Positions 149-39,231 of a DNA stretch of 56,682 nucleotides are shown here, in pieces (positions within the stretch are counted from its first letter, which is position 1; each line of letters begins with the position of its first letter). Position numbers and translations under genes: made by a program. A model generated the notes under the pieces. That model was not told the origin of the DNA and made no database searches. It worked only from the letters and a program-made list of their open reading frames with translations. Origin of the DNA: a virus (taxonomy: Duplodnaviria; Caudoviricetes); the IMG/VR virus record IMGVR_UViG_3300028780_000007, positions 1 to 56,682 of that record; one strand, given 5' to 3'.

Positions 149-1039
149 ATGGACGAATCGAAAGCACCGCTTCTTTACACCAGTTGGGCCTCTTTTGAAG
201 TAACCGAGTTCACATATTCCCAGGCAAACGACATGGCCAAATGCGGGATGTATTCCAAGCTCTCTCGCATTGAAGGTTGGACCGACATCCACGAGCGCGC
301 GACCATGCAGTTTGGCAACTGCATTGAGGCTGGCGTCCGCAACTACTACATGAATGGCATCGATCCGATCCAATCGTTCGCGGACGAATGGGCGCGCCGC
401 AAGAAGTGGAACCTCGAGTACAACAAGAAGTCCGGAGATTGGTCCGAGATGGACGGCCTCGGCCGGAACTTGATGACTCAATTGCTCGCCAGCGACGGAA
501 AGATCACCGGGGACGACATGCAGGAGCATTCTCTTCAGGGCTTCACGTTCAATGAGAAGCTGACGAAGCCTGATTGGTACAAGGGAACGCCGCTTGTGTA
601 CATCGCGGACGCGTACAAGCCGGGCGAGATCGTTATTGATATCAAATGTTTAGGCGCGAAACTTTCCGACGAAGATAAATTTAAGGGTTTCGTTGCCCTC
701 GACCCACAACTTCGTACTGGTGCGCTAGTGAGCGGGGCTCGCCGGGTAGGATTCATGAATTTCATCCGCACAAAAACGAATCCACGGATTCAATGGAAAG
801 AGGTAGCGGTCACCGAAGACTTGATCGTCGACATCGATCTTTGGTTAAAAGATCAATACGACAAATTGATGGGAAGAAAATTCCACCGCAACGCTGGGAT
901 TCGCTTTCCTTCTTCTCAGTGCACTTTTTGTTCCATGCTGCCGATCTGCACGAACAACGAGACGCTGGCAAAAGAAACGTTGCGCAGAAAAGAGGCGCGT
1001 GACACGGAAACTGAATTTTTGAGTCTTGATGATGATTGA
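149..1039 (+). CDS. PD-(D/E)XK nuclease (RecB/AddB/Cas4-like)
   Basis: 296 aa; E...YIAD...VIDIK catalytic motif, QL motif, N-terminal Cys plus C-terminal CxxCxxxxxC. Confidence 0.75.
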   Translation: MDESKAPLLYTSWASFEVTEFTYSQANDMAKCGMYSKLSRIEGWTDIHERATMQFGNCIEAGVRNYYMNGIDPIQSFADEWARRKKWNLEYNKKSGDWSEMDGLGRNLMTQLLASDGKITGDDMQEHSLQGFTFNEKLTKPDWYKGTPLVYIADAYKPGEIVIDIKCLGAKLSDEDKFKGFVALDPQLRTGALVSGARRVGFMNFIRTKTNPRIQWKEVAVTEDLIVDIDLWLKDQYDKLMGRKFHRNAGIRFPSSQCTFCSMLPICTNNETLAKETLRRKEARDTETEFLSLDDD

Positions 1040-25446: not shown

Positions 25447-25929
25447 TCATAGGTTTGCAAGAATATTGCGCGCTTCGGCGAGAGACTGACAAGCGGCCCA
25501 CCAATCAAGGATTTCAGGGCCACGGGAGCGGAGATATTCGGTTAAAGCGCGGCTGTATGAGCGTTCGAGCCAGTCAATACCCGCGTTGCGGCGGGTTGAG
25601 GTGAGGCGGAAGCCCTTCTCTGGGCAGAGAGTAGCAGGGCTTCCGGTTTGTGTGGCGGGAACGTCTGTAGGTAGGTGCGCTGAGGAATCGGTATTAAAGG
25701 ATGCTCCCCCGTCAAGTTGTGCGCTCGCGGTTACGCGCGTAACCTGTTGAGTAGCAGTAACTTGCCCCGTCGAAGCATCCATTGATACTGATTCTTGCAA
25801 TTCTTGAGGTAGAAACTTAATCGCTGTCCATGTGTCCTCCGCGTCCATATATGGACGCGGGGCTGTACCAGTACGCGCGTCTCCTTTGCCGCCGTCGAAC
25901 AGCCCCGCTTGAGAGTCTGTGTTTCTCAT
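25447..25929 (-). CDS. hypothetical protein, possibly near-leaderless
   Basis: 160 aa; ATG lies 9 nt downstream of a -10 box. Confidence 0.4.
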   Translation of the reverse strand: MRNTDSQAGLFDGGKGDARTGTAPRPYMDAEDTWTAIKFLPQELQESVSMDASTGQVTATQQVTRVTASAQLDGGASFNTDSSAHLPTDVPATQTGSPATLCPEKGFRLTSTRRNAGIDWLERSYSRALTEYLRSRGPEILDWWAACQSLAEARNILANL

Positions 25930-31606: not shown

Positions 31607-31682
31607 GCCAGCGTAGTTCAACGGTAAGAACGCTTCTCTCATAAGGAAGAAATGCACGGTCCAATTCCGGCCGCTGGTACCA
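31607..31682 (+). tRNA. tRNA-Met or Ile2 (CAT)
   Basis: Cloverleaf, loop CTCATAA, CCA end. Confidence 0.8.
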
Positions 31683-31701
31683 CTAACCTCGAAAGGACAC
31701 T

Positions 31702-32061
31702 ATGAAAGCTGAACAGGTTGCAAGGGTTTGCCATGAGGCCAATCGGGCCTACTGTGAGGCGATCGGCGATAACTCGCAGGTACGGTGGGAAGATGCTCCG
31801 ACGTGGCAACGCCAGTCGGCCATCACTGGCGTTGAGTTCGTTTTAAAGTCGCTGAGAGAATCAAAAACACTTCCGAGCCCGAGCATGTCGCACGAAAGTT
31901 GGTTGCGGGAGAAGACGAAGGATGGATGGAAATACGGGCCAGTGAAGGACGTCGAGAAGAAAGAGCATCCGTGTTTTGTTTCTTACGATCAATTGCCGCC
32001 GCAGCAGCGCGCGAAAGATTTTCTGTTTCTGGCGGTCGTGGAAGCGTTGTACAATTTCTGA
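31702..32061 (+). CDS. RyR-domain protein
   Basis: HESWLREKTKDGWKYGPVKDVEKKEHPCFVSYDQLP. Confidence 0.8.
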   Translation: MKAEQVARVCHEANRAYCEAIGDNSQVRWEDAPTWQRQSAITGVEFVLKSLRESKTLPSPSMSHESWLREKTKDGWKYGPVKDVEKKEHPCFVSYDQLPPQQRAKDFLFLAVVEALYNF

Positions 32062-32139
32062 CGCGGACATTGAGCTACGGTGCGCTCGCATCTCTCATAA
32101 GGATGGCCTTATCTGGTTCAACTCCAGAGTCCGCAACCA
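32062..32139 (+). tRNA. tRNA-fMet-like (CAT)
   Basis: C1:A72 mismatch, loop CTCATAA, CCA. Confidence 0.8.
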
Positions 32140-32141
32140 AC

Positions 32142-32215
32142 TGGGAAGTCGGCCAAAGGTAGGCCGCTGGGCCTTGGACTCAGCTATCCACGTTCGAGTC
32201 GTGGCTTCCCAGCCA
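32142..32215 (+). tRNA. tRNA-Gln (TTG)
   Basis: Cloverleaf, loop CCTTGGA (C33), CCA. Confidence 0.85.
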
Positions 32216-32222
32216 AATTTTT

Positions 32223-32296
32223 GCGCAGTTAGGTCAGTGGTAGACCGCCCGCCTCCAAATCGGGAAACGGAAGTTCGATCCTTTCGCTGCGCGCCA
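32223..32296 (+). tRNA. tRNA-Trp (CCA)
   Basis: Cloverleaf, loop CTCCAAA, CCA. Confidence 0.85.
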
Positions 32297-32297
32297 C

Positions 32298-32387
32298 GGA
32301 GAAATGCTCGAGAGGCTGAAGAGGTCCGACTGCTACTCGGACGTGCTGTAAAAGGCACCGTTGGTTCGAATCCAACTTTCTCCGCCA
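32298..32387 (+). tRNA. tRNA-Ser (GCT)
   Basis: Long variable arm, G73, CCA. Confidence 0.9.
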
Positions 32388-32391
32388 GTTC

Positions 32392-32467
32392 GGTCCCGTA
32401 GCTCAATTGGAAAGAGTTCCAGATTACGAATCTGGCGATCGCGGTTCGAATCCGTGCGGGACCGCCA
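32392..32467 (+). tRNA. tRNA-Arg (ACG)
   Basis: Cloverleaf, loop TTACGAA, CCA. Confidence 0.9.
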
Positions 32468-32472
32468 AGTTT

Positions 32473-32560
32473 GGAGCAATGGCACAGCGGCAACTGCCCC
32501 GGACTGTAAATCCGGTGTCCCTTCGGGACTACGAAGGTTCGAGTCCTTCTTGCTCCACCA
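32473..32560 (+). tRNA. tRNA-Tyr (GTA)
   Basis: Long variable arm, loop CTGTAAA, CCA. Confidence 0.9.
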
Positions 32561-32565
32561 TTTTC

Positions 32566-32641
32566 GGTTCCGTCGTCCAATTGCACAGGACACTACCCTC
32601 CGAAGGTAAAAATTCCGGTTGGAATCCGGACGGGACCGCCA
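32566..32641 (+). tRNA. tRNA-Arg (CCG)
   Basis: Cloverleaf, variant T-loop TTGGAAT, CCA. Confidence 0.8.
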
Positions 32642-32649
32642 AATAACTA

Positions 32650-32686
32650 TTGCAAGCCTGAAGTCTTTCCTGTAAAACAGCAAGCG
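32650..32686 (+). promoter_or_regulatory. sigma70-like promoter overlapped by AAAACAGCAAGCG
   Basis: TTGCAA-17 nt-TAAAAC just before a tRNA. Confidence 0.5.
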
Positions 32687-32687
32687 T

Positions 32688-32762
32688 GCTCTCGTGGCCG
32701 AATGGACTAGGCGCTCGAGTCCTAATCGAGTAACGCGAGTTCGAATCTCGCCGAGAGCTCCA
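32688..32762 (+). tRNA. tRNA-Arg (CCT)
   Basis: Cloverleaf, loop GTCCTAA, CCA. Confidence 0.85.
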
Positions 32763-32763
32763 T

Positions 32764-32840
32764 GCGAGCGTGGTGCAACTGGTAGACACGGTGACCCCAA
32801 AAGTCATTTTTTGCGAGTTCGAATCTCGCCGCTCGCACCA
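32764..32840 (+). tRNA. tRNA-Leu (CAA), short variable arm
   Basis: Loop CCCAAAA (C33), A73, CCA. Confidence 0.8.
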
Positions 32841-32854
32841 ATATTGGAGGGGTG

Positions 32855-32995
32855 ATGGGAACTACTTGTAAGCACGGAACGGACAATATGTTTACGTGTC
32901 CTCATTGCCGAAAAGAATTTAAGGTTTCCGAAGCGATCAGGGAGCCGAGAAAAGAAGAGAAGTCGATGGAAGAGCAGCAACGAGAAGTTGAGTGA
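32855..32995 (+). CDS. small Cys/His peptide
   Basis: GGAGG RBS; CKHG...CPHC, 46 aa. Confidence 0.5.
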   Translation: MGTTCKHGTDNMFTCPHCRKEFKVSEAIREPRKEEKSMEEQQREVE

Positions 32996-32999
32996 CATT

Positions 33000-33082
33000 G
33001 CGCGAGTGGTGGAATGCATACACATCAGCCTTAGAAGCTGACGCCTTCGGGATTGGGGGTTCGACTCCCTCCTCGCGCACCA
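33000..33082 (+). tRNA. tRNA-Leu (TAG)
   Basis: Variable arm, loop CTTAGAA, CCA. Confidence 0.9.
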
Positions 33083-33092
33083 AATTTAGAAT

Positions 33093-33169
33093 GCGCCACT
33101 ATCCCAACTGGAAGAGGACGTGGACTTAAAATCCACTAGATCGGAGTTCGAATCTCCGGTGGCGCACCA
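33093..33169 (+). tRNA. tRNA-Leu (TAA), short variable arm
   Basis: Loop CTTAAAA, A73, CCA. Confidence 0.8.
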
Positions 33170-33179
33170 AAATCGTGCC

Positions 33180-33431
33180 ATGAAATCAGCGTGCCCAAAT
33201 TGCTTAACTCCGAGCGATCTCCCGGTAAACATACGGCCGGATTGGTTCGTTCTCTGCTTTTCCTGCGCGTTCATTGGGGTTCTCGCGGCGGATATGAGCG
33301 TGCGAGAGGCAACCGATAGGGATTTCGCCGAGGCGACCGAGTACGCTAGGGGCTGGATGTATCGCAAACAGAACCTCGTGTTGATAAATATTTACAGAAA
33401 AAGGTTTGCACGGCACGCGGACATGAATTAA
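33180..33431 (+). CDS. hypothetical Zn-ribbon-like protein
   Basis: CPNC...CFSC; fills the gap between tRNAs. Confidence 0.5.
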   Translation: MKSACPNCLTPSDLPVNIRPDWFVLCFSCAFIGVLAADMSVREATDRDFAEATEYARGWMYRKQNLVLINIYRKRFARHADMN

Positions 33432-33439
33432 ATTTCTTT

Positions 33440-33517
33440 GGGGCTGTGCGGTAAGGGACATCCGGCCCGTCTTCTAAGCGGGATAATTTGAGAGTTCGAA
33501 TCTCTCCAGCCCCACCA
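33440..33517 (+). tRNA. tRNA-Arg (TCT)
   Basis: Loop CTTCTAA, CCA. Confidence 0.8.
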
Positions 33518-33519
33518 GT

Positions 33520-33594
33520 GGCGCGGTAGCCAAGTGGGAAGGTTGGGGCCTGCAAAGTCCCGATGAGCGTGTTCGATTCACGCCCGCGCCTCCA
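33520..33594 (+). tRNA. tRNA-Cys (GCA)
   Basis: Loop CTGCAAA, U73, CCA. Confidence 0.9.
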
Positions 33595-33618
33595 AGATTC
33601 GTAAGGGAGGAAAAAGTA

Positions 33619-33819
33619 ATGTTTTTGACTCCTGTAGTTACAGTGCTTGAAAAGATTGCCGTGTCGATCAACAGGCTTACAACTGCTGTCGATACGAGAG
33701 GAGAACAGATTTCTAATGTTCTCGGTCAAATCTTGAAGGCACTTCAGAAGCAACCACAAGTACCTGGGGAGGCGGTTTCCCTGAAACTCACCCTCGGTAA
33801 AGCAGTGCAACAGAAGTAA
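33619..33819 (+). CDS. hypothetical protein
   Basis: GGAGG RBS; ends GEAVSLKLTLGKAV, similar to the end of the next ORF. Confidence 0.6.
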   Translation: MFLTPVVTVLEKIAVSINRLTTAVDTRGEQISNVLGQILKALQKQPQVPGEAVSLKLTLGKAVQQK

Positions 33820-33840
33820 AATTCACGGAGGAAAAACGAA

Positions 33841-34221
33841 ATGGCAAACCCACAGATTGGAGATACCCAGCAGGCGCCTTATTCTGTAACCGGTTTGGAC
33901 GCGGACGGACAGCCGGCGCAGCTTGAACCAGGTGATGTGGTAACTGTCACGTCTTCGGCCCCAGCATCGCTTTCGGTTGTTCCCGACGCAACGCCGGCTC
34001 CGGGCTCGCTCGCTTCCGGTCAGTTGGTTGGCGGAACGACGCTTGCGGTTGGAGTGACGATCACGGCGGTCATCACGCACACGGACGGCACTTCGGCAAC
34101 GGCGACGGATACGATTGACGTCGTTTCCGGTGAGGCTGCAACGTTGGCAATCGGGCTCGGCGCACCTGTGTCGCAGACGCAGCCACCGGCGCCGGCTTCG
34201 GCTCGTCAGGCTGGTCGGTAA
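33841..34221 (+). CDS. beta-rich, possibly Ig-like protein
   Basis: GGAGG RBS; Thr/Val/Ala-rich alternating strands. Confidence 0.65.
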   Translation: MANPQIGDTQQAPYSVTGLDADGQPAQLEPGDVVTVTSSAPASLSVVPDATPAPGSLASGQLVGGTTLAVGVTITAVITHTDGTSATATDTIDVVSGEAATLAIGLGAPVSQTQPPAPASARQAGR

Positions 34222-34238
34222 CATCGTTTCGTAGTTTG

Positions 34239-34288
34239 GGTTGGGGTACGCGAAGGGCAAGCCGTGTAGACGGCGCGTACCCCGGCCA
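34239..34288 (+). ncRNA. small stem-loop element ending in GCCA
   Basis: 13-bp stem GGTTGGGGTACGC/GCGTACCCCGGCC with inner hairpin GCCGT/ACGGC. Confidence 0.4.
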
Positions 34289-34351
34289 TCATTCAAGTTT
34301 GTTTTAATAGGCCGATCCTTGTTAAAGGAAACGGCCTATAATTTTAATATG

Positions 34352-34443
34352 GGTCGCCAGCACTGGGTGCGGGTTCGGCTTATACCCGAGCGAGATTCCC
34401 GGATTGGGGAGACGGCACGGATCGTAACCGTGGGCGACCACCA
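34352..34443 (+). tRNA. atypical tRNA with TAT anticodon (Ile-UAU-like), long variable arm
   Basis: Acceptor GGTCGCC/GGCGACC, loop CTTATAC, T-arm CACGG-ATCGTAA-CCGTG, ACCA end. Confidence 0.7.
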
Positions 34444-34445
34444 TC

Positions 34446-34533
34446 GGAAGGCACTGCTGCAAGGGCGGCAACTGGCCCTGAAAGCCAGGGCGTCTCCAAC
34501 GGGACGGGGGTTCGAATCCTCTGCCTTCCGCCA
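34446..34533 (+). tRNA. tRNA-Ser (TGA)
   Basis: Long variable arm, extended D-stem, loop CCTGAAA (C33), G73, CCA. Confidence 0.8.
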
Positions 34534-34561
34534 AATTTCATTTGTCCAGATATGGACGAAT

Positions 34562-34635
34562 GGTGGCGTAGCTCAGTGGCAGAGCTCGCGGTCGATAACC
34601 GCGCGACGGGTGTTCGATTCACCACGTCACCACCA
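34562..34635 (+). tRNA. tRNA-Ile (GAT)
   Basis: Loop TCGATAA (C33), CCA. Confidence 0.85.
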
Positions 34636-34637
34636 AC

Positions 34638-34711
34638 GCTGACTTCGTACAATGGAAGTACTCTCGTTTGAAGCACGAGCAACGTCCGTTCGATTCGGAC
34701 AGTCAGCGCCA
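34638..34711 (+). tRNA. tRNA-Phe (GAA)
   Basis: Loop TTGAAGC, CCA. Confidence 0.8.
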
Positions 34712-34726
34712 CTCTTAGGAGGAGCA

Positions 34727-35098
34727 ATGAAAAAGCCGTATGAGTATGCTGACGAATTGGTGACCACCGGTGGAAAGGATGCTCTTGAGCACCTTGAAAC
34801 GAATATCAAAACTCACACGACTCGTTTTCGCTTGTACACTGCAATTCACAGCTATTCAATTTCAATGATTCTCCCGTCGCCAGAGAAGCCAAACGGTTAT
34901 ATGGGTTGTATTGCATCTTGTCGCGCTCCGTATCCCGGAGAGACGCACACGCGAGGGAATGATTTGCCGGATGGGCCGTACAGCGATGAAACGTGGCACG
35001 CAATCCTGGCTGCCATTGTGAGGTATGAGATTTTGCCGCTCTATCGGAGTTCTGGGTTTATTCCAGTGCGAAACACGGGTACTGAAGCGAATGCTTGA
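34727..35098 (+). CDS. hypothetical protein
   Basis: AGGAGGAG RBS; YMGCIASCRAPYPGE...RGNDLPDG. Confidence 0.7.
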   Translation: MKKPYEYADELVTTGGKDALEHLETNIKTHTTRFRLYTAIHSYSISMILPSPEKPNGYMGCIASCRAPYPGETHTRGNDLPDGPYSDETWHAILAAIVRYEILPLYRSSGFIPVRNTGTEANA

Positions 35099-35123
35099 CG
35101 GTCGCTCGCTGTTTAGATACCAT
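35095..35123 (+). promoter_or_regulatory. sigma70-like promoter with CGCTCGCTGTTT in spacer
   Basis: TTGACG-17 nt-TACCAT, 7 nt before tRNA-Val. Confidence 0.65.
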
Positions 35124-35130
35124 TCATTTC

Positions 35131-35203
35131 GCCGGCCTTGTCGTCTGGTGACGGCCCTCCCCTTACAAGGGAGTTAAGCAGGATTCGATTTCCTGGGTCG
35201 GTA
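35131..35203 (+). tRNA. tRNA-Val (TAC)
   Basis: Loop CTTACAA; no encoded CCA. Confidence 0.8.
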
Positions 35204-35204
35204 C

Positions 35205-35277
35205 GCCGGCATAGCTTAGTGACAAAGCATCGCATCGGTAATGCGACGACCTGAGTTTGATTCTCAGTGCTGGCTCC
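35205..35277 (+). tRNA. tRNA-Thr (GGT)
   Basis: Loop TCGGTAA (C33), ends TCC. Confidence 0.8.
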
Positions 35278-35351
35278 GGGAGTGTAATTCAGTGGAAGAA
35301 GCCCTCTCTCTTAAAGAGGAAACGAGTGTTCGATTCACTCCACTCCCACCA
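35278..35351 (+). tRNA. tRNA-Lys (CTT)
   Basis: Loop CTCTTAA, CCA. Confidence 0.85.
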
Positions 35352-35358
35352 AGTTTAT

Positions 35359-35434
35359 TGGGCAGTAGCATAATTGGTATTGCGTTCCGCTGTTACCGGA
35401 AAGGATGACCGTTCGAATCGGTCCTGCCCAGCCA
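35359..35434 (+). tRNA. tRNA-Asn (GTT)
   Basis: U1-A72, loop CTGTTAC, G73, CCA. Confidence 0.85.
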
Positions 35435-35463
35435 ATTTTGTTGATTGTGATCGAGGAGGAAAT

Positions 35464-35835
35464 ATGAAATCGAAATACAAGTCGTTGCTCGTGTTCTTCG
35501 GCTTCTTGCTGTTCGCAACGGTTTTGATGGCGCAGACAGCGCCATCGGCGCCGGCCGCTCCAACGCAGTCGATGGGCATTGCGCAGACTGTCATCGTTCT
35601 TGCTGGGGTGGTTGCCTCGATACTGCAAGGCGTGAAGCAACTGGTCCCGCAGATTAACGGGAAGGTTGCCATAGCCATCAGCATCGCCGCGTCGCTTGCA
35701 TTGGCTTATGCCGCCGCGCAGCCTGGGCAGGTGATCAGCATTCAATTTCTTATCACCACGCTCGGCACGGCGTTAGGCTCTAACGGCATTTACGATTTCT
35801 TGAAGAAACCAAAAGCGCCAGTACCAGCGGCGTAA
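35464..35835 (+). CDS. multi-pass membrane protein, holin-like
   Basis: GAGGAGG RBS; signal peptide plus about 3 TMs; ends GSNGIYDFLKK. Confidence 0.6.
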   Translation: MKSKYKSLLVFFGFLLFATVLMAQTAPSAPAAPTQSMGIAQTVIVLAGVVASILQGVKQLVPQINGKVAIAISIAASLALAYAAAQPGQVISIQFLITTLGTALGSNGIYDFLKKPKAPVPAA

Positions 35836-35861
35836 CCGGAGGTAGTCATGAGAGGTGACCG

Positions 35862-36047
35862 ATGATTTTGCTTATCATTGTGCTGATTCTGGTGTTCGGT
35901 GTGGGCGGCGGTTATTACGGCAATAGCCGCTGGGGAGCGCAGGGCGGGTTCGGGATGGGGCTGGGCACGATCCTGATAATCCTTTTGATTCTGTATCTGC
36001 TAGGTGCCTTTGGCGGCGGTGGCTTCGGGCACGGCAGATTGTTCTAA
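35862..36047 (+). CDS. DUF3309-like small membrane protein
   Basis: LILVFGVGGGYYGNSRWG...LGTILIILLILYLLG. Confidence 0.7.
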   Translation: MILLIIVLILVFGVGGGYYGNSRWGAQGGFGMGLGTILIILLILYLLGAFGGGGFGHGRLF

Positions 36048-36050
36048 GAG

Positions 36051-36176
36051 TGGCGCGTTCCGCGTGTTGACCCGAGCGCGGATTCACCGCGGGCTTAACA
36101 GCCCACATCGGGTCCAGAACGGGAAGCAGCTACCAAAAGTGCTGCGATGCGGCTAATACCGCCTAGCGGCGCGTCA
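36051..36176 (+). ncRNA. multibranch structured RNA candidate
   Basis: Closing stem TGGCGCGT/GCGCGTCA, nested GACCCGA/TCGGGTC and four hairpins. Confidence 0.55.
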
Positions 36177-36178
36177 AC

Positions 36179-36252
36179 GGGCGATTAATTTAGTGGGAAA
36201 AGATCGGGCTTTTACCCCGAGAACGAAGGTTCGATTCCTTCATCGCCCACCA
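36179..36252 (+). tRNA. tRNA-Lys (TTT)
   Basis: Loop CTTTTAC, CCA. Confidence 0.8.
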
Positions 36253-36253
36253 A

Positions 36254-36327
36254 GCGGGTGTCGTATAGTGGAATTACCCCTGTCTTCCAAACAGGTGACG
36301 AGTGTTCGATTCACTCCATCCGCTCCA
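36254..36327 (+). tRNA. tRNA-Gly (TCC)
   Basis: Loop CTTCCAA, U73, CCA. Confidence 0.9.
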
Positions 36328-36331
36328 TTTC

Positions 36332-36405
36332 GCCGATGTCGTCCAGTGGGAAGACGTCGATCTCGTACATCGAAGACGACTGTTCGATTCAGTCCATCGG
36401 CTCCA
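36332..36405 (+). tRNA. tRNA-Thr (CGT)
   Basis: Loop CTCGTAC, CCA. Confidence 0.85.
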
Positions 36406-36423
36406 ATTTCAGAAAGGATCGCC

Positions 36424-36834
36424 ATGACCGAAGCTCAAATCGAAGATGTCGGCGAAGCTTTGAACCGGCGCGTTCCGAAAAAATATCACGAGGGAGCTCC
36501 TCATCCGCGTCCAATTGGCAGGCCGTTTTTCACGGGTTTCAAAACCAATGTTCCCGCACAGAATTTGTCGGAGGAAGAAAACGCGAAGTTGGTGGCGGCC
36601 GTAGAAAAGCCCGGCGATTTAGGGTATGTGGCGCAATTTGTTTTTTACGCAAAGATTGCGGGGGGGCCGTTCTTTTACGTGAATCTTCCTAATATGAAGG
36701 GCGGCAGGTACGAGATCGGCGAAAGCTTCGACATCGGCGAGGAGCGAGTGCATTGCGATATCTCGCAGCGGGATTTAGAGTCGATGTTGGAAGCTGGCTA
36801 CAAAAAGATTTGTGAGATTTCTGGGGTTGTCTGA
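36424..36834 (+). CDS. hypothetical protein
   Basis: AAGGA RBS; start re-called at MTEAQ; stop lies inside the next tRNA. Confidence 0.6.
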   Translation: MTEAQIEDVGEALNRRVPKKYHEGAPHPRPIGRPFFTGFKTNVPAQNLSEEENAKLVAAVEKPGDLGYVAQFVFYAKIAGGPFFYVNLPNMKGGRYEIGESFDIGEERVHCDISQRDLESMLEAGYKKICEISGVV

Positions 36835-36896
36835 CAGTGGAAGTCAATCTCCCTCTCGAGGAGAAAACGCGGGTTCGATTCCCGCCAACCCTACCA
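36823..36896 (+). tRNA. tRNA-Glu (CTC)
   Basis: Loop CTCTCGA, CCA. Confidence 0.8.
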
Positions 36897-36900
36897 AGTT

Positions 36901-37000
36901 CGCGGCGAGGGGGATACCGTTTGAATATTTTTGGTGAATAAAACGGCCGCTTGGCGGATGTTACGGTCCAAGCGCGTACCGCCCTACTTAGCTCGCCGCG
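36901..37000 (+). ncRNA. three-way-junction structured RNA candidate
   Basis: CGCGGCGAG/CTCGCCGCG closing stem; hairpins CCGTTT/AAACGG and CGCTTGG/CCAAGCG. Confidence 0.55.
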
Positions 37001-37012
37001 ATTTAATTTCAC

Positions 37013-37087
37013 GCCGCCATAGCTCAATTGGTAGAGCCTCTCACTTGTAACGAGAAGACGAGGGATCGTAACCTTCTGGCGGCTCCA
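37013..37087 (+). tRNA. tRNA-Thr (TGT)
   Basis: Loop CTTGTAA, T-loop ATCGTAA, CCA. Confidence 0.85.
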
Positions 37088-37103
37088 GTTTTGAGGGGTT
37101 TAT

Positions 37104-37562
37104 ATGGCAGACGTAATTGAAATGCAGCCGAAACAAGAACGGCATTCGCTTGAGAAGAAACGGAATGACGGTTACGTGATCGTTGAGGAGGTCGTCGATG
37201 GTAAGACGACCGGCAAACGATTCCATTGCGAGCACAATGTCTTAGAAGTCGATGAGCGCCGCGGGGTGGTGATATGCAAGACCTGTGGTGACGAAATGTC
37301 TCCGCTTGAAGCTCTAAAGCTTCTCTATCGCACGATTTGGTGGGAAGAGAACACGCGCGAGCGGCAAATTGAGTACGATCAAAAGCGCGTTTCGAAGGTT
37401 CAAGTCGCGGCGCTTATTTGTCTTTACGAGGCCGGTGTGACGCCAGAGAAGTACGCCGAGCGGTGGAACAAAGAACACGCGCGCCGCGCTACGCTGGAAA
37501 TTGCGAAGGTTGCGGAGAAGCAAGTGGCGATTGACGGCGGGTCAGAAAAGCCAGTAGCCTAA
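37104..37562 (+). CDS. hypothetical protein with CxH...CxxC
   Basis: CEHNVLEVDERRGVVICKTCG; GAGG RBS. Confidence 0.65.
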   Translation: MADVIEMQPKQERHSLEKKRNDGYVIVEEVVDGKTTGKRFHCEHNVLEVDERRGVVICKTCGDEMSPLEALKLLYRTIWWEENTRERQIEYDQKRVSKVQVAALICLYEAGVTPEKYAERWNKEHARRATLEIAKVAEKQVAIDGGSEKPVA

Positions 37563-37603
37563 AAAAAGTTGCAAAACAGCAAGCGCTGTGCAATTCTCTT
37601 TTC

Positions 37604-37680
37604 GGGGTTATCGTCTAGACGGCCCAGGATCCAAGATTTTCACTCTTGAGACGCCGGTTCGAATCCGGCTAACCCTGCCA
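37604..37680 (+). tRNA. tRNA-Glu (TTC)
   Basis: Loop TTTTCAC, CCA. Confidence 0.9.
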
Positions 37681-37682
37681 AT

Positions 37683-37757
37683 GGGGGCGTAGTGACAAAG
37701 TGAACACGGCTCGCTTGCACCGAGCAAAAGCCCGTTAGAATCGGGTCGCCTCCACCA
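37683..37757 (+). tRNA. tRNA-Ala (TGC)
   Basis: G3:U70, loop CTTGCAC, CCA. Confidence 0.85.
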
Positions 37758-37865
37758 AGATCGACGCAGTATTTAGCGTCAACGAGCGAGGTCAAGTGCG
37801 ATGGTCGGGCGCGCACAGGGACCAATTTATCCGCTTCGGCCCGCTAGATTGTAGAAGGGGCGGAT

Positions 37866-38129
37866 ATGACAAATCTGAAGGGAGCTTTGCCGATGCCAGC
37901 GCCAGGATTTCAGGGAATCACGGAACAAAATTTGAAGAACTGGTTTACGTACCACAAGCCCACCGAGGGGCAGAACGAACAGTACCTTGCCATCCGCGAA
38001 GCGGCGCTTATTTTCGCGCGCACGATCGTGGCGAACACGCCAGTGAGCGCGGACCAGTCTTCTGCGATTCGGCATGTTCGTATGGCGACGATGGAAGCGA
38101 ATCAATCGATCGCTTGTGGCGGACACTAA
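37866..38129 (+). CDS. Acb2/Tad1-like helical hairpin protein
   Basis: NWFTYHKP...QYLAIREAA...PVSADQSSAIRHVRMATMEANQSIA; start could be 37893. Confidence 0.55.
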   Translation: MTNLKGALPMPAPGFQGITEQNLKNWFTYHKPTEGQNEQYLAIREAALIFARTIVANTPVSADQSSAIRHVRMATMEANQSIACGGH

Positions 38130-38136
38130 AAAGTTC

Positions 38137-38213
38137 GGAGGCGTAGAGGAGTGGCCGTCCTCGGCTCACTGTCTATGAGCAAACCGTGGGTTCGAATCCC
38201 ATCGTCTCCGCCA
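38137..38213 (+). tRNA. tRNA-Asp (GTC)
   Basis: Loop CTGTCTA, G73, CCA. Confidence 0.85.
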
Positions 38214-38215
38214 AT

Positions 38216-38291
38216 GGTAGATGAAGCCAAACGGTGCGGCGCCTGATTGTGGATCAGGTTCTAGTGGGTCCGACTCCCATCTTCTACCCCA
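38216..38291 (+). tRNA. tRNA-His (GTG)
   Basis: G-1:C73, loop TTGTGGA, CCA. Confidence 0.85.
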
Positions 38292-38297
38292 AGTTTC

Positions 38298-38373
38298 GGC
38301 GGAGTAGGGTAACGGCTATCCCACCTGCTTTGGGAGCAGGGAACTGCGAGTTCGAATCTCGCCTCTGCCACCA
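38298..38373 (+). tRNA. tRNA-Pro (TGG)
   Basis: Loop TTTGGGA, CCA. Confidence 0.85.
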
Positions 38374-38395
38374 ATTTCCACATACCACACAGAGA

Positions 38396-38480
38396 GGGGC
38401 AGGGAGGCGTAAAACCGCGGGCGAGAACCGAGGCGAAAGCCAAAGTACACCTGTTGGGTAGTGCGCGCCTCCCCAGTCCC
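38396..38480 (+). ncRNA. structured RNA candidate
   Basis: GGGAGGCG/CGCCTCCC closing stem, GGC-GAAA-GCC tetraloop hairpin. Confidence 0.5.
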
Positions 38481-38490
38481 GTTTAAGATT

Positions 38491-38565
38491 CGAGGCGTAG
38501 CGAAGAGGAAACGCGCAGCTTTCGGGAAGCTGAGATCGCCAGTTCGAGTCTGGCCGCCTCGACCA
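38491..38565 (+). tRNA. tRNA-Pro (CGG)
   Basis: C1-G72, loop TTCGGGA, CCA. Confidence 0.9.
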
Positions 38566-38584
38566 AATTGGAGGTTTCGATGTC

Positions 38585-39013
38585 ATGGCTTTTACGCGCA
38601 AAGAAATCCAGCTGAGATATAGACTCAGGCATCCTGGTTATTGGAAGAAAGATGCGGCGCGTGCGGCAAAATGGGCGCGAGACAATCCGGAATGGTTTAA
38701 AAACTATCGAAATACCCATAGAATTAAATTTCGCGAGTGGAGACGTAACAGTAAGATTAAACGAAAATACGGCATCAGTGCGGCTGAATATGGTTCTTTG
38801 TTGAAAGCGCAGAATAATATTTGCGCAGTATGTAAGAAGCCATTTGCAGGTAATCTTCGATGTGGCACCGATCCAGTTCTTGATCATCGGCATGGTGGCA
38901 AGATAAGAGAATTCATCCATCGCAAGTGCAATGTGGCGATTGGGTTTTTGTGTGATGATCCAGTGTTGTGTCGTTTGGCCGCTGAATATCTGGAAAAGCA
39001 CGCTAGCTTTTGA
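38585..39013 (+). CDS. endonuclease VII-like homing endonuclease
   Basis: KYGISAAEY...QNNICAVC...LDHRHGGKIREFIHRKCNVAIG. Confidence 0.85.
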   Translation: MAFTRKEIQLRYRLRHPGYWKKDAARAAKWARDNPEWFKNYRNTHRIKFREWRRNSKIKRKYGISAAEYGSLLKAQNNICAVCKKPFAGNLRCGTDPVLDHRHGGKIREFIHRKCNVAIGFLCDDPVLCRLAAEYLEKHASF

Positions 39014-39021
39014 TGATTTCA

Positions 39022-39151
39022 TGGGGTATCCCCCAGTCGAGCCAATGCTGTTGCGGTTGTAAAACAAAAAGAACTGACAACAAAATGGAACTACCTCTCG
39101 CGGCCTAACGGCTAGCGAGGCGCTTCCCGGTGAGCGAAATCACCGGGTTTT
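39022..39151 (+). ncRNA. tmRNA-like mRNA domain (pseudoknot, tag DNKMELPLAA, stop hairpin, terminator) without visible tRNA-like domain
   Basis: AAAAAGAACT then GAC AAC AAA ATG GAA CTA CCT CTC GCG GCC TAA (39076-39108); hairpin around the stop; terminator CCCGGTGA/TCACCGGG-TTTT. Confidence 0.6.
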
Positions 39152-39155
39152 CAAT

Positions 39156-39231
39156 TCCGGGGTCGTCTAATTCGACAGGATAATCGCCTCTGAAGCGATC
39201 GATAAAGGTTTGAATCCTTTCCCCGGAGCCA
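39156..39231 (+). tRNA. tRNA-Gln (CTG)
   Basis: U1-A72, loop CTCTGAA, G73, CCA. Confidence 0.85.

Follow-up and report, generated by a model that had tools for sequence, protein, structure and literature searches.

The locus and the predicted anatomy of the module

The DNA analysed here, referred to as the window, is the entire IMG/VR virus record IMGVR_UViG_3300028780_000007 (Duplodnaviria; Caudoviricetes), which is 56,682 bases long and is estimated to be about 54% complete. The record encodes a primase-helicase, RecA, a portal protein and a large terminase, and the DNA of this phage is present in sequencing runs labelled as peat metagenome. It also carries a tRNA array of 34 genes (31607-39231), 33 of them called by ARAGORN and one (38217-38288) by Rfam alone. 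At the end of this array, in a gap of 142 nucleotides (nt) between a gene of the endonuclease VII family and a tRNA-Gln gene, sits the element examined here: a short module that resembles the tag-coding part of transfer-messenger RNA (tmRNA) and is not accompanied by a tRNA-like domain. An earlier note on this DNA, made from the sequence alone, had read the module in this way, and the core of that reading holds.

The spacers of the array are mostly filled by small protein genes, which leave no more than a few dozen bases before the next tRNA. Three spacers are gene-free (36897-37012, 38374-38490 and 39014-39155), and the module occupies the last of them. Its elements, together with the neighbouring genes, are listed in Table 1. 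The tag-like frame, the A-rich run directly 5′ of it and the hairpin over its stop codon had all been described in the earlier note, and each is present in the DNA. The stop-codon hairpin (H3) pairs 39096-39105 with 39110-39120 and has the Leu-Ala-Ala codons as its 5′ strand. The hairpin before it (H2) takes up, in its 3′ strand, the 4 bases that immediately precede the resume codon and 7 bases from the start of the tag frame. In the predicted fold the resume codon is enclosed in the 10 pairs of this hairpin. Taken as a whole, the 142-nt gap folds better than all of 200 shuffles (z -3.34).

A pseudoknot had been suggested from CGAGCC/GGTTG together with TGTT/AACA. On folding, TGTT/AACA turned out to belong to the ordinary H2 hairpin and GGTTG to be the 5′ strand of H2, while the proposed first stem, CGAGCC/GGTTG, forms 4 standard pairs out of 6 positions. 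No pseudoknot 1 upstream of a single-stranded resume codon is seen in the predicted fold, where a plain H2 hairpin stands instead. The intrinsic terminator suggested at the 3′ end of the module corresponds to a terminator-like hairpin followed by four T, and H4 may act as a terminator; terminator-like sites as a class are not enriched in the region (14 found against 12.8 expected). The tRNA-Gln gene begins 5 bases beyond H4 on the same strand. Tag-like endings taken alone are not special either, as Leu-Ala-Ala-stop (LAA-stop) occurs 5 times in the six frames of the window, compared with 2.0 ± 1.5 times in shuffles. We also considered whether the tag frame could be a frameshift extension of the endonuclease gene. 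This was rejected, since the frames are offset and the 32-amino-acid open reading frame (ORF) that starts at 39010 is broken by a 1-base deletion in a sister strain.

Seven bases in the 3′ strand of H3 (39116-39122) are identical to the 5′ acceptor strand of tRNA-Pro(CGG) at 38491-38497, 600 bases upstream. We judge this match to be coincidental; the probability of finding one in 142 nt by chance is roughly 1%. The other two gene-free spacers both adopt closed multi-branch folds with a long closing stem, with z -3.44 for 38374-38490 (reached by 1 of 200 shuffles) and z -1.77 for 36897-37012 (reached by 10 of 200). Neither is matched by any Rfam family or by any tmRNA profile, and for want of a profile match there they were rejected as lost parts of a tmRNA.

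Contigs from RNA libraries were available from four runs and cover 38723-39036, 38769-38994, 38822-38972 and 38945-39095 at a depth of 3-12. They fall in the endonuclease gene and extend into the module, and the remainder of the module and tRNA-Gln are uncovered. These contigs, which show neither ends nor levels and in which DNA carry-over is possible, gave no sign of an abundant small RNA.

Table 1. Elements of the module and genes on either side of it (positions in the window)
Feature	Position	Strand	Basis
tRNA-Pro(CGG), upstream neighbour; complete cloverleaf, encoded CCA	38491..38565	+	ARAGORN; Rfam tRNA, 61.2 bits; own 5′ and 3′ strands pair (alignment)
Endonuclease VII-family (His-Me finger) gene, 142 amino acids	38585..39013	+	Pfam PF02945, E 1.3e-12; ORF list
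Hairpin H1, G-run/C-run, 5 pairs	39022..39035	+	Predicted fold
Hairpin H2, 10 pairs, one bulge, 13-nt A-rich loop	39049..39082	+	Minimum free energy and centroid folds
A-rich segment ending AACT	39062..39075	+	Aligned to the pre-resume stretch of real tmRNAs (nhmmer alignments; comparison with 31 Acidobacteriota tmRNAs)
Tag-like frame DNKMELPLAA with TAA stop	39076..39108	+	ORF list; aligned to tag frames of real tmRNAs
Hairpin H3, helix 5 analogue, 10 pairs, stop codon in 4-nt loop	39096..39120	+	Fold
Hairpin H4, terminator-like, 8 pairs (6 G-C), loop of 6, then TTTT	39126..39151 (hairpin 39126-39147)	+	Consensus scan; fold
tRNA-Gln(CTG), downstream neighbour, last tRNA of the array; complete cloverleaf	39156..39231	+	ARAGORN; Rfam, 53.7 bits

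Likeness to the tag regions of real tmRNAs

To compare the module with genuine tmRNAs, we built sequence profiles from the tag regions of real tmRNAs, which were sampled evenly across several groups, and ran the profiles with nhmmer over the whole window on both strands. The profiles are short and were built on tags called by ARAGORN; loci from four of six genomes flagged as unpublished were excluded from every profile, and none of the conclusions depends on any of the six. The profile from Acidobacteriota (n=31) matched 39062-39128 with 15.2 bits (E 4.8e-4), and this was its only significant match, the next best having an E-value of 0.29. A pooled profile of mixed tmRNAs (n=71) gave the module 15.9 bits (E 3.4e-4; next best 4.7), and for a profile of permuted coding pieces (n=39) the module was the sole match, at 11.5 bits (E 0.0014). 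It was likewise the top match for the profiles from Verrucomicrobiota (n=30; 11.0 bits, E 0.017), Actinomycetota (n=25; 10.7 bits, E 0.014) and Alphaproteobacteria (n=32; 7.1 bits, E 0.036, a score that none of 30 simple shuffles reached). Altogether, five of six independently sampled taxon profiles placed the module first.

These scores were set against several controls. When the window was shuffled with its dinucleotides preserved, none of 100 shuffles reached the 15.2 bits of the Acidobacteriota profile and the maximum was 10.9. Other phage loci, 114,818 bases in all, contained no match to the same profile at E <= 10. Pairwise comparison pointed the same way: the best local alignment of the module to a real tmRNA had a score of 52, with shuffles giving 27.6 ± 3.2 and at most 46 (0 of 200 reached 52). 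This alignment sets bases 1-104 of the module against tmRNA positions 36-137 and begins two bases past the stop codon of the endonuclease gene. The profile matches begin in the pre-resume segment, run through the tag and helix 5, and stop a few bases beyond.

The build of the module also agrees in detail with that of the Acidobacteriota tmRNAs. In 28 of the 31, as in the module, the Ala-Ala codons belong to the 5′ strand of a hairpin that has the stop codon in its loop or close to it, and in many of the 31 AACT directly precedes the resume codon. The resume at an Asp codon, as the earlier note had it, is likewise in keeping with these genes: one has an Asp resume codon and the tag DNNNYALAA, and others have ANNEMALAA and ADTQLPLAA. 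Based on these comparisons, the module is very probably homologous to tmRNA; we regard the evidence as good, not overwhelming.

Tags with a similar ending occur in nature. We scanned for the back-translated six-residue ending in bacteria, using one genome per species (at least 120 loci), and separately in viral contigs (38 loci). At least five of the bacterial loci are tmRNA genes, with the tags ANDDYAELPLAA (three permuted genes), ANYDELPLAA and AEAELPLAA. Among the 38 viral loci, six hold a complete, phage-borne permuted tmRNA whose tag ends in ELPLAA; ARAGORN found five of these and Rfam alone the sixth, L251. Permuted tmRNAs of the beta type were found in 3 of 81 genomes of one order, too few for a profile of their own. 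As observations in their own right, L251 (an IMG/VR contig, about 430-790, minus strand) holds a complete permuted tmRNA that scores 87.9 bits with RF04321 and was missed by ARAGORN; it has about 75 nt between its acceptor and coding pieces and no encoded CCA after the acceptor strand. The other five viral loci hold permuted tmRNAs with tags ending in QELPLAA.

Absence of a tRNA-like domain, and relatives of the phage

The window and a contig of a sister strain together provide about 85 kb of phage DNA, and no tRNA-like domain was found in it. For the window, the earlier note's statement that none lies near the module stood up to ARAGORN, which called 33 tRNAs and no tmRNA, and to Rfam, whose 30 matches at gathering score were every one a tRNA. 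The Rfam tmRNA models, permuted form included, which that note had named as a check, led to the same result: over the whole record RF00023 and RF04321 matched tRNAs only, and no tmRNA reached the gathering score. Full-length tmRNA profiles matched the tag region and the T-arms of ordinary tRNAs, and nothing else. In neither the window nor the 28 kb of additional sister DNA did a regular-expression search find, beside a T-arm, a 3′ strand complementary to the G-run of the module and followed by CCA. T-loop-like words outside annotated tRNAs occur at 8 sites in the window, all far from the module and none with an acceptor strand. On the sister contig, which adds about 28 kb, profiles and ARAGORN found only tRNA-Gln and the module. 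We considered tRNA-Pro(CGG) and tRNA-Gln as the missing tRNA-like domain and rejected both, as they are complete cloverleaves with acceptor stems of their own.

Alanine charging, SmpB binding and delivery by EF-Tu all act on the tRNA-like domain. Without an acceptor stem, T-arm and CCA end, RNA from the module would therefore be neither charged with alanine nor admitted to a stalled ribosome, and for that reason could not by itself carry out trans-translation.

The sister-strain contig is 97.9% identical to the window over 17.3 kb, extends the genome by about 28 kb and holds the module, which differs at two places. In the sister, the G-run of H1 is shorter by one base, a deletion that weakens that hairpin. 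The second difference, T39075C, affects the base just before the resume codon; with it, a G-U pair of H2 becomes G-C and the profile score drops from 15.2 bits to 11.8. This base is T in all 31 Acidobacteriota and all 32 alphaproteobacterial tmRNAs compared, and C in the sister strain. A metagenome contig found by using tRNA-Gln as an anchor carries an identical module. At the end of sister contig L009 (locus 2268-2291, minus-strand reading) are about 24 bases unrelated to the phage, which may represent a library or template-switch adapter. If so, the end of that contig, at about 38841 of the window, would be an artefact of library making and not a genome end.

Searches further afield returned little. 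Eight more distant phage contigs were recognised by homologues of the 97-amino-acid protein encoded downstream of the module (30-54% identity); two of these have the gene, as here, after the final tRNA of an array, and one of the two (L012) has an ORF with an HNH motif just before that tRNA. The same protein compared with 5.8 billion proteins returned nothing between 55% and 99% identity. Phage GenBank records searched by DNA gave no match, the best tblastn match of the terminase was 29% identical, and an IMG/VR search with three proteins retrieved a single sister strain and nothing else. None of the collections searched contained a relative of intermediate divergence. The same unit without a tRNA-like domain, for which the earlier note had suggested looking in relatives, was not found in more distant ones. 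Five of ten distant records were searched with the module DNA and the standard tmRNA model, and neither was found. Searching 401 Acidobacteriota genomes with the module by BLAST gave only chance-level matches of 17-35 nt, and none of the best 15 lay in a tmRNA, from which it follows that the module has not been copied recently from any host gene sampled.

The endonuclease VII-family protein occurs as an identical copy on 35 contigs and otherwise has few relatives, four of them at 41-50% identity. Its gene is missing from the equivalent place in the more distant relatives, and L012 has there the different, HNH-motif ORF. The enzyme is probably a homing endonuclease of the free-standing kind. 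The replication module also contains an endonuclease gene, the second of the record (HNH, PF01844/PF14279; 6241-6780, +).

Several further observations concern the rest of the record. The tRNA that ARAGORN missed (38217-38288, +) scores 43 bits with Rfam; its anticodon loop, judged by eye, suggests His (GTG), with an extra 5′ G. Between the first two tRNA genes lies a 119-amino-acid ORF with a RyR domain (31702-32058, +; PF02026, E 6.6e-11). Another ORF in the array (37866-38126, +; 87 amino acids) has an Acb2/Tad1 hairpin domain (PF24729, E 8e-08), the mark of a family of anti-defence 'sponges'. All 21 mismatches of a metagenome contig (L027; 2,997 bases, 99.3% identical) fall within 37922-38123, inside this ORF; judged by its alignment, this cluster marks either a sharply localised hot spot of variation or the exchange of an allele. 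Finally, a dispersed 14-base motif with the core AAAACAGC(A/G)AGCG has 9 copies on both strands with at most 2 mismatches (0.5 expected; none of 100 shuffles reach 9), at 97, 10935, 16434, 19112, 23752, 25948, 32673, 37572 and 40272. One copy lies between promoter-like hexamers upstream of a minus-strand ORF that starts at 25929, and the motif may be a phage promoter or operator element.

Origin of the module and comparison with known systems

We favour the view that the module is a fragment derived from a tmRNA, most likely a relic cut at the endonuclease gene that would now serve as the 3′ tail and terminator of that gene, and we put the probability of this at about one half. As judged from the alignments, the fragment retains approximately the end of the pseudoknot-1 region or pre-resume segment, the tag frame, helix 5 and a few bases beyond, and it is without both tRNA-like halves, pseudoknot 1 and the later pseudoknots. 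An ancestor of this tRNA-rich phage would, like other phages, have had a tmRNA gene of its own in the array. Turnover of gene cassettes, including the arrival of the endonuclease VII-family gene at the 5′ edge, would then have removed the ends of the tmRNA, and the remnant would be transcribed as the 3′ tail of the endonuclease message, ending in the hairpin and T-run.

A relic fits the locus because the likeness to tmRNA begins at the endonuclease stop codon, the pre-resume base varies and the resume codon is buried in a hairpin; the latter two are signs of relaxed constraint. Of the three possibilities raised in the earlier note, a tmRNA broken beside the endonuclease gene is the one that fits best, because both tRNA-like halves are missing from about 85 kb; the other two, an RNA that works in trans and a decoy, are without positive evidence. 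We cannot tell whether the ancestor was a one-piece or a two-piece tmRNA, as the one-piece Acidobacteriota profile scores best (15.2 versus 11.5 bits) and the layout after helix 5 is that of a permuted coding piece.

A number of observations count against a relic, or against its derivation from tmRNA altogether. The module is known only from relatives that are 97.9-99.3% identical; none of the relatives found has an intact tmRNA at this position, and ten more distant records had neither the module nor a tmRNA by the permuted model. For a relic the module is also tidy, with an intact tag frame and strong hairpins, and the phage record is only about 54% complete. The support from profiles is modest, being about 15 bits from sequence profiles of a short, A-rich and partly low-complexity region, and the module was missed by the Gammaproteobacteria profile (n=29). 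A covariance model of the 31 Acidobacteriota sequences, which has only 2 consensus pairs and was run in global mode, gave the module 11.8 bits (E 0.11) and scored a chance place in the terminase gene higher (12.3 bits, E 0.085). A profile of 7 coding pieces of beta and phage type matched 25731-25776 at E 0.014 and the module only at E 0.28. We judged the former match to be spurious, as it lies inside a 160-amino-acid ORF and has no G-run upstream, and E-values near 0.01 from small profiles are therefore not to be trusted here. Rfam's permuted tmRNA model matched 39002-39108 with 16.4 bits against a cut-off of 47; this match was absent from three other scans and, because they failed to reproduce it, is not relied on. 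The level of noise can be gauged from a relative (G001), in which ordinary sequence with no tRNA gave a comparable global match of 12.2 bits.

These weaknesses bear most directly on the possibility that the resemblance is accidental, the module being nothing but a structured spacer and a terminator that follow the endonuclease gene, with a tag-like frame and an A-rich run arisen by chance. The recurrence of LAA-stop endings, 5 in the window, the unenriched terminator-like sites, the failure of the covariance model to separate the module from an accidental match and the spurious E 0.014 match of a small profile elsewhere would all agree with this, as would the strong folds of the other two gene-free spacers (z -1.8 and -3.4) and the absence of the module from more distant relatives. 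Even so, we consider an accident unlikely. Across the window the profile E-values are 3.4e-4 to 4.8e-4 and the next matches are 600 to 14,000 times weaker; no shuffle in 100 attained the score and 115 kb of control phage DNA contained no match; the module leads in five of six taxon profiles, shares its stop-in-loop hairpin with 28 of 31 real tmRNAs and lies within a tRNA array.

If the module does derive from tmRNA, it could instead be a fragment of a host gene, captured by the phage at an attachment site, through imprecise excision or by illegitimate recombination and not left by decay of a phage gene. Parts of PMC9004378 and PMC4131195 describe ssrA fragments in prophages and at the integration sites of islands. 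The best profile here is that of the Acidobacteriota, a phylum named in the titles of several soil metagenome-assembled genomes, and the phage DNA occurs in peat metagenome runs. Capture nevertheless seems improbable to us. Copies made at attachment sites keep the 3′ end of the gene, which in a one-piece tmRNA is the T-arm and acceptor strand and not the tag region; the BLAST matches to 401 Acidobacteriota genomes were of 17-35 nt, the best 15 outside tmRNA; and among 79 ORFs of the window Pfam recognised no integrase family, the extra 28 kb of sister DNA not having been scanned at the protein level. The phage also owns a primase-helicase, RecA and 34 tRNAs, which suit a lytic phage better.

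Another option is that the module is one half of a working split tmRNA whose acceptor piece lies elsewhere, in the unsampled part of the phage genome or in a two-piece host. In its order of tag, helix 5, a single terminal hairpin and a T-run, and in having no later pseudoknots, the module is laid out like permuted coding pieces, among them L251; its 5′ part begins with a G-run, as coding pieces do; the 39-piece permuted profile matches it at E 0.0014; and with the record about 54% complete there is room for a missing piece. We regard this as quite unlikely, given that the window and 28 kb more contain no candidate for the acceptor piece, that the profile likeness stops short of the 5′ tRNA-like part, and that there is no pseudoknot 1, the resume codon is enclosed in a hairpin and the G-run is one base shorter in the sister strain. 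On this reading the endonuclease gene would lie within the segment excised from the precursor, or stand in its place; that the intervening segments of permuted genes vary in length, from about 5 to about 80 nt in the examples compared, speaks for it. We would give about as little credence to the module being a stand-alone coding piece, one that pairs with an acceptor supplied in trans, from the host or from elsewhere in the phage genome, and thereby adds a phage-chosen tag, or that acts as a decoy and disturbs host rescue.

The least probable of the explanations considered is a working RNA without a tRNA-like domain, either as a decoy that soaks up a trans-translation factor of the host or as a cis element that sets the stability or level of the endonuclease message. 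It is in line with the strong fold (z -3.34, 0 of 200 shuffles), with the intact tag frame and helix 5, and with the lone substitution in the sister strain, which strengthens a pair of H2. SmpB and EF-Tu, however, recognise the tRNA-like domain, which is absent here, and the module is not conserved beyond near-identical strains. RNA-library contigs at a depth of 3-12, a poor measure, showed no sign of an abundant small RNA. Mycobacteriophage DS6A has a tRNA-like domain only, for which a part of PMC4131195 proposes an inhibitory role, and on this precedent partial tmRNAs may be put to use. On balance, we retain a tmRNA relic beside the endonuclease gene as the preferred explanation.

Phage tmRNAs are rare and their role is unsettled. 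The tag-coding middle of a tmRNA standing alone, beside a mobile endonuclease gene in an array of 34 tRNAs, shows how tmRNA genes may be lost or rebuilt in tRNA arrays. If the module is a relic, it makes a modest point about annotation, in that ARAGORN and Rfam miss tmRNA remnants and ARAGORN missed even the complete L251. If it is functional, the two functions of tmRNA would be separable and could be supplied in trans, which would be new for ribosome rescue and for the conflict between phage and host. The best match to Acidobacteriota tag regions may also offer a weak lead to the host of this uncultured peat phage.

One of the closest known systems is the coding piece of two-piece tmRNAs, found in Alphaproteobacteria, some Betaproteobacteria and phages. 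Like the module, it has a tag, helix 5, a terminal hairpin and a T-run, and is without pseudoknots 2-4. Unlike it, the module has no acceptor piece upstream, no detectable 5′ segment resembling the acceptor and D-loop, and no pseudoknot 1, and the distance from G-run to resume codon is about 54 nt compared with about 83-90 nt in the two-piece examples compared. Free-standing homing endonucleases are known in phage tRNA clusters, such as SegB of T4 and the endonucleases of T5. The present locus resembles these in having an endonuclease gene, here putatively a homing one, between tRNA genes of a phage array; by Pfam this enzyme belongs to the endonuclease VII family, not to GIY-YIG.

Pseudogenes of bacterial tmRNA and fragments made by integration are also known, as parts of PMC4131195 relate. 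They have in common with the module a partial likeness to tmRNA, missing gene ends and an adjoining mobile gene. The module differs in that both ends are gone and the middle is kept, in that it lies in a phage tRNA array, and in that its neighbour is an endonuclease VII-family gene and not an integrase.

According to sections of PMC9004378, 402 of 18,146 phage genomes have a tmRNA, and ARAGORN classed 53 of these as two-piece. Complete ones include the one-piece tmRNAs of Bxz1-group mycobacteriophages and Bacillus phage G and the two-piece tmRNAs of marine phages such as Melnitz (parts of PMC4131195 and PMC9004378). These too place a tag region in a phage that carries tRNA genes, but they have both tRNA-like halves and score well over the Rfam cut-off, at 84-144 bits for example, whereas the module has neither half and reaches 16.4 bits at best. 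In the literature searched, which covered few subscription journals, we found no report of a phage tmRNA remnant that consists of the tag region only. DS6A, already mentioned, holds little more than the tRNA-like domain of a tmRNA (Hudson, Lau and Williams 2014, in portions of PMC4131195). It resembles the present phage in having only part of a tmRNA and is otherwise its mirror image, keeping the tRNA-like domain and no tag region where the module keeps the tag region and no tRNA-like domain. A tRNA-like domain alone could plausibly bind SmpB; for a tag region alone we know of no partner. The module thus provides a natural counterpart to DS6A, the only other partial phage tmRNA on record.

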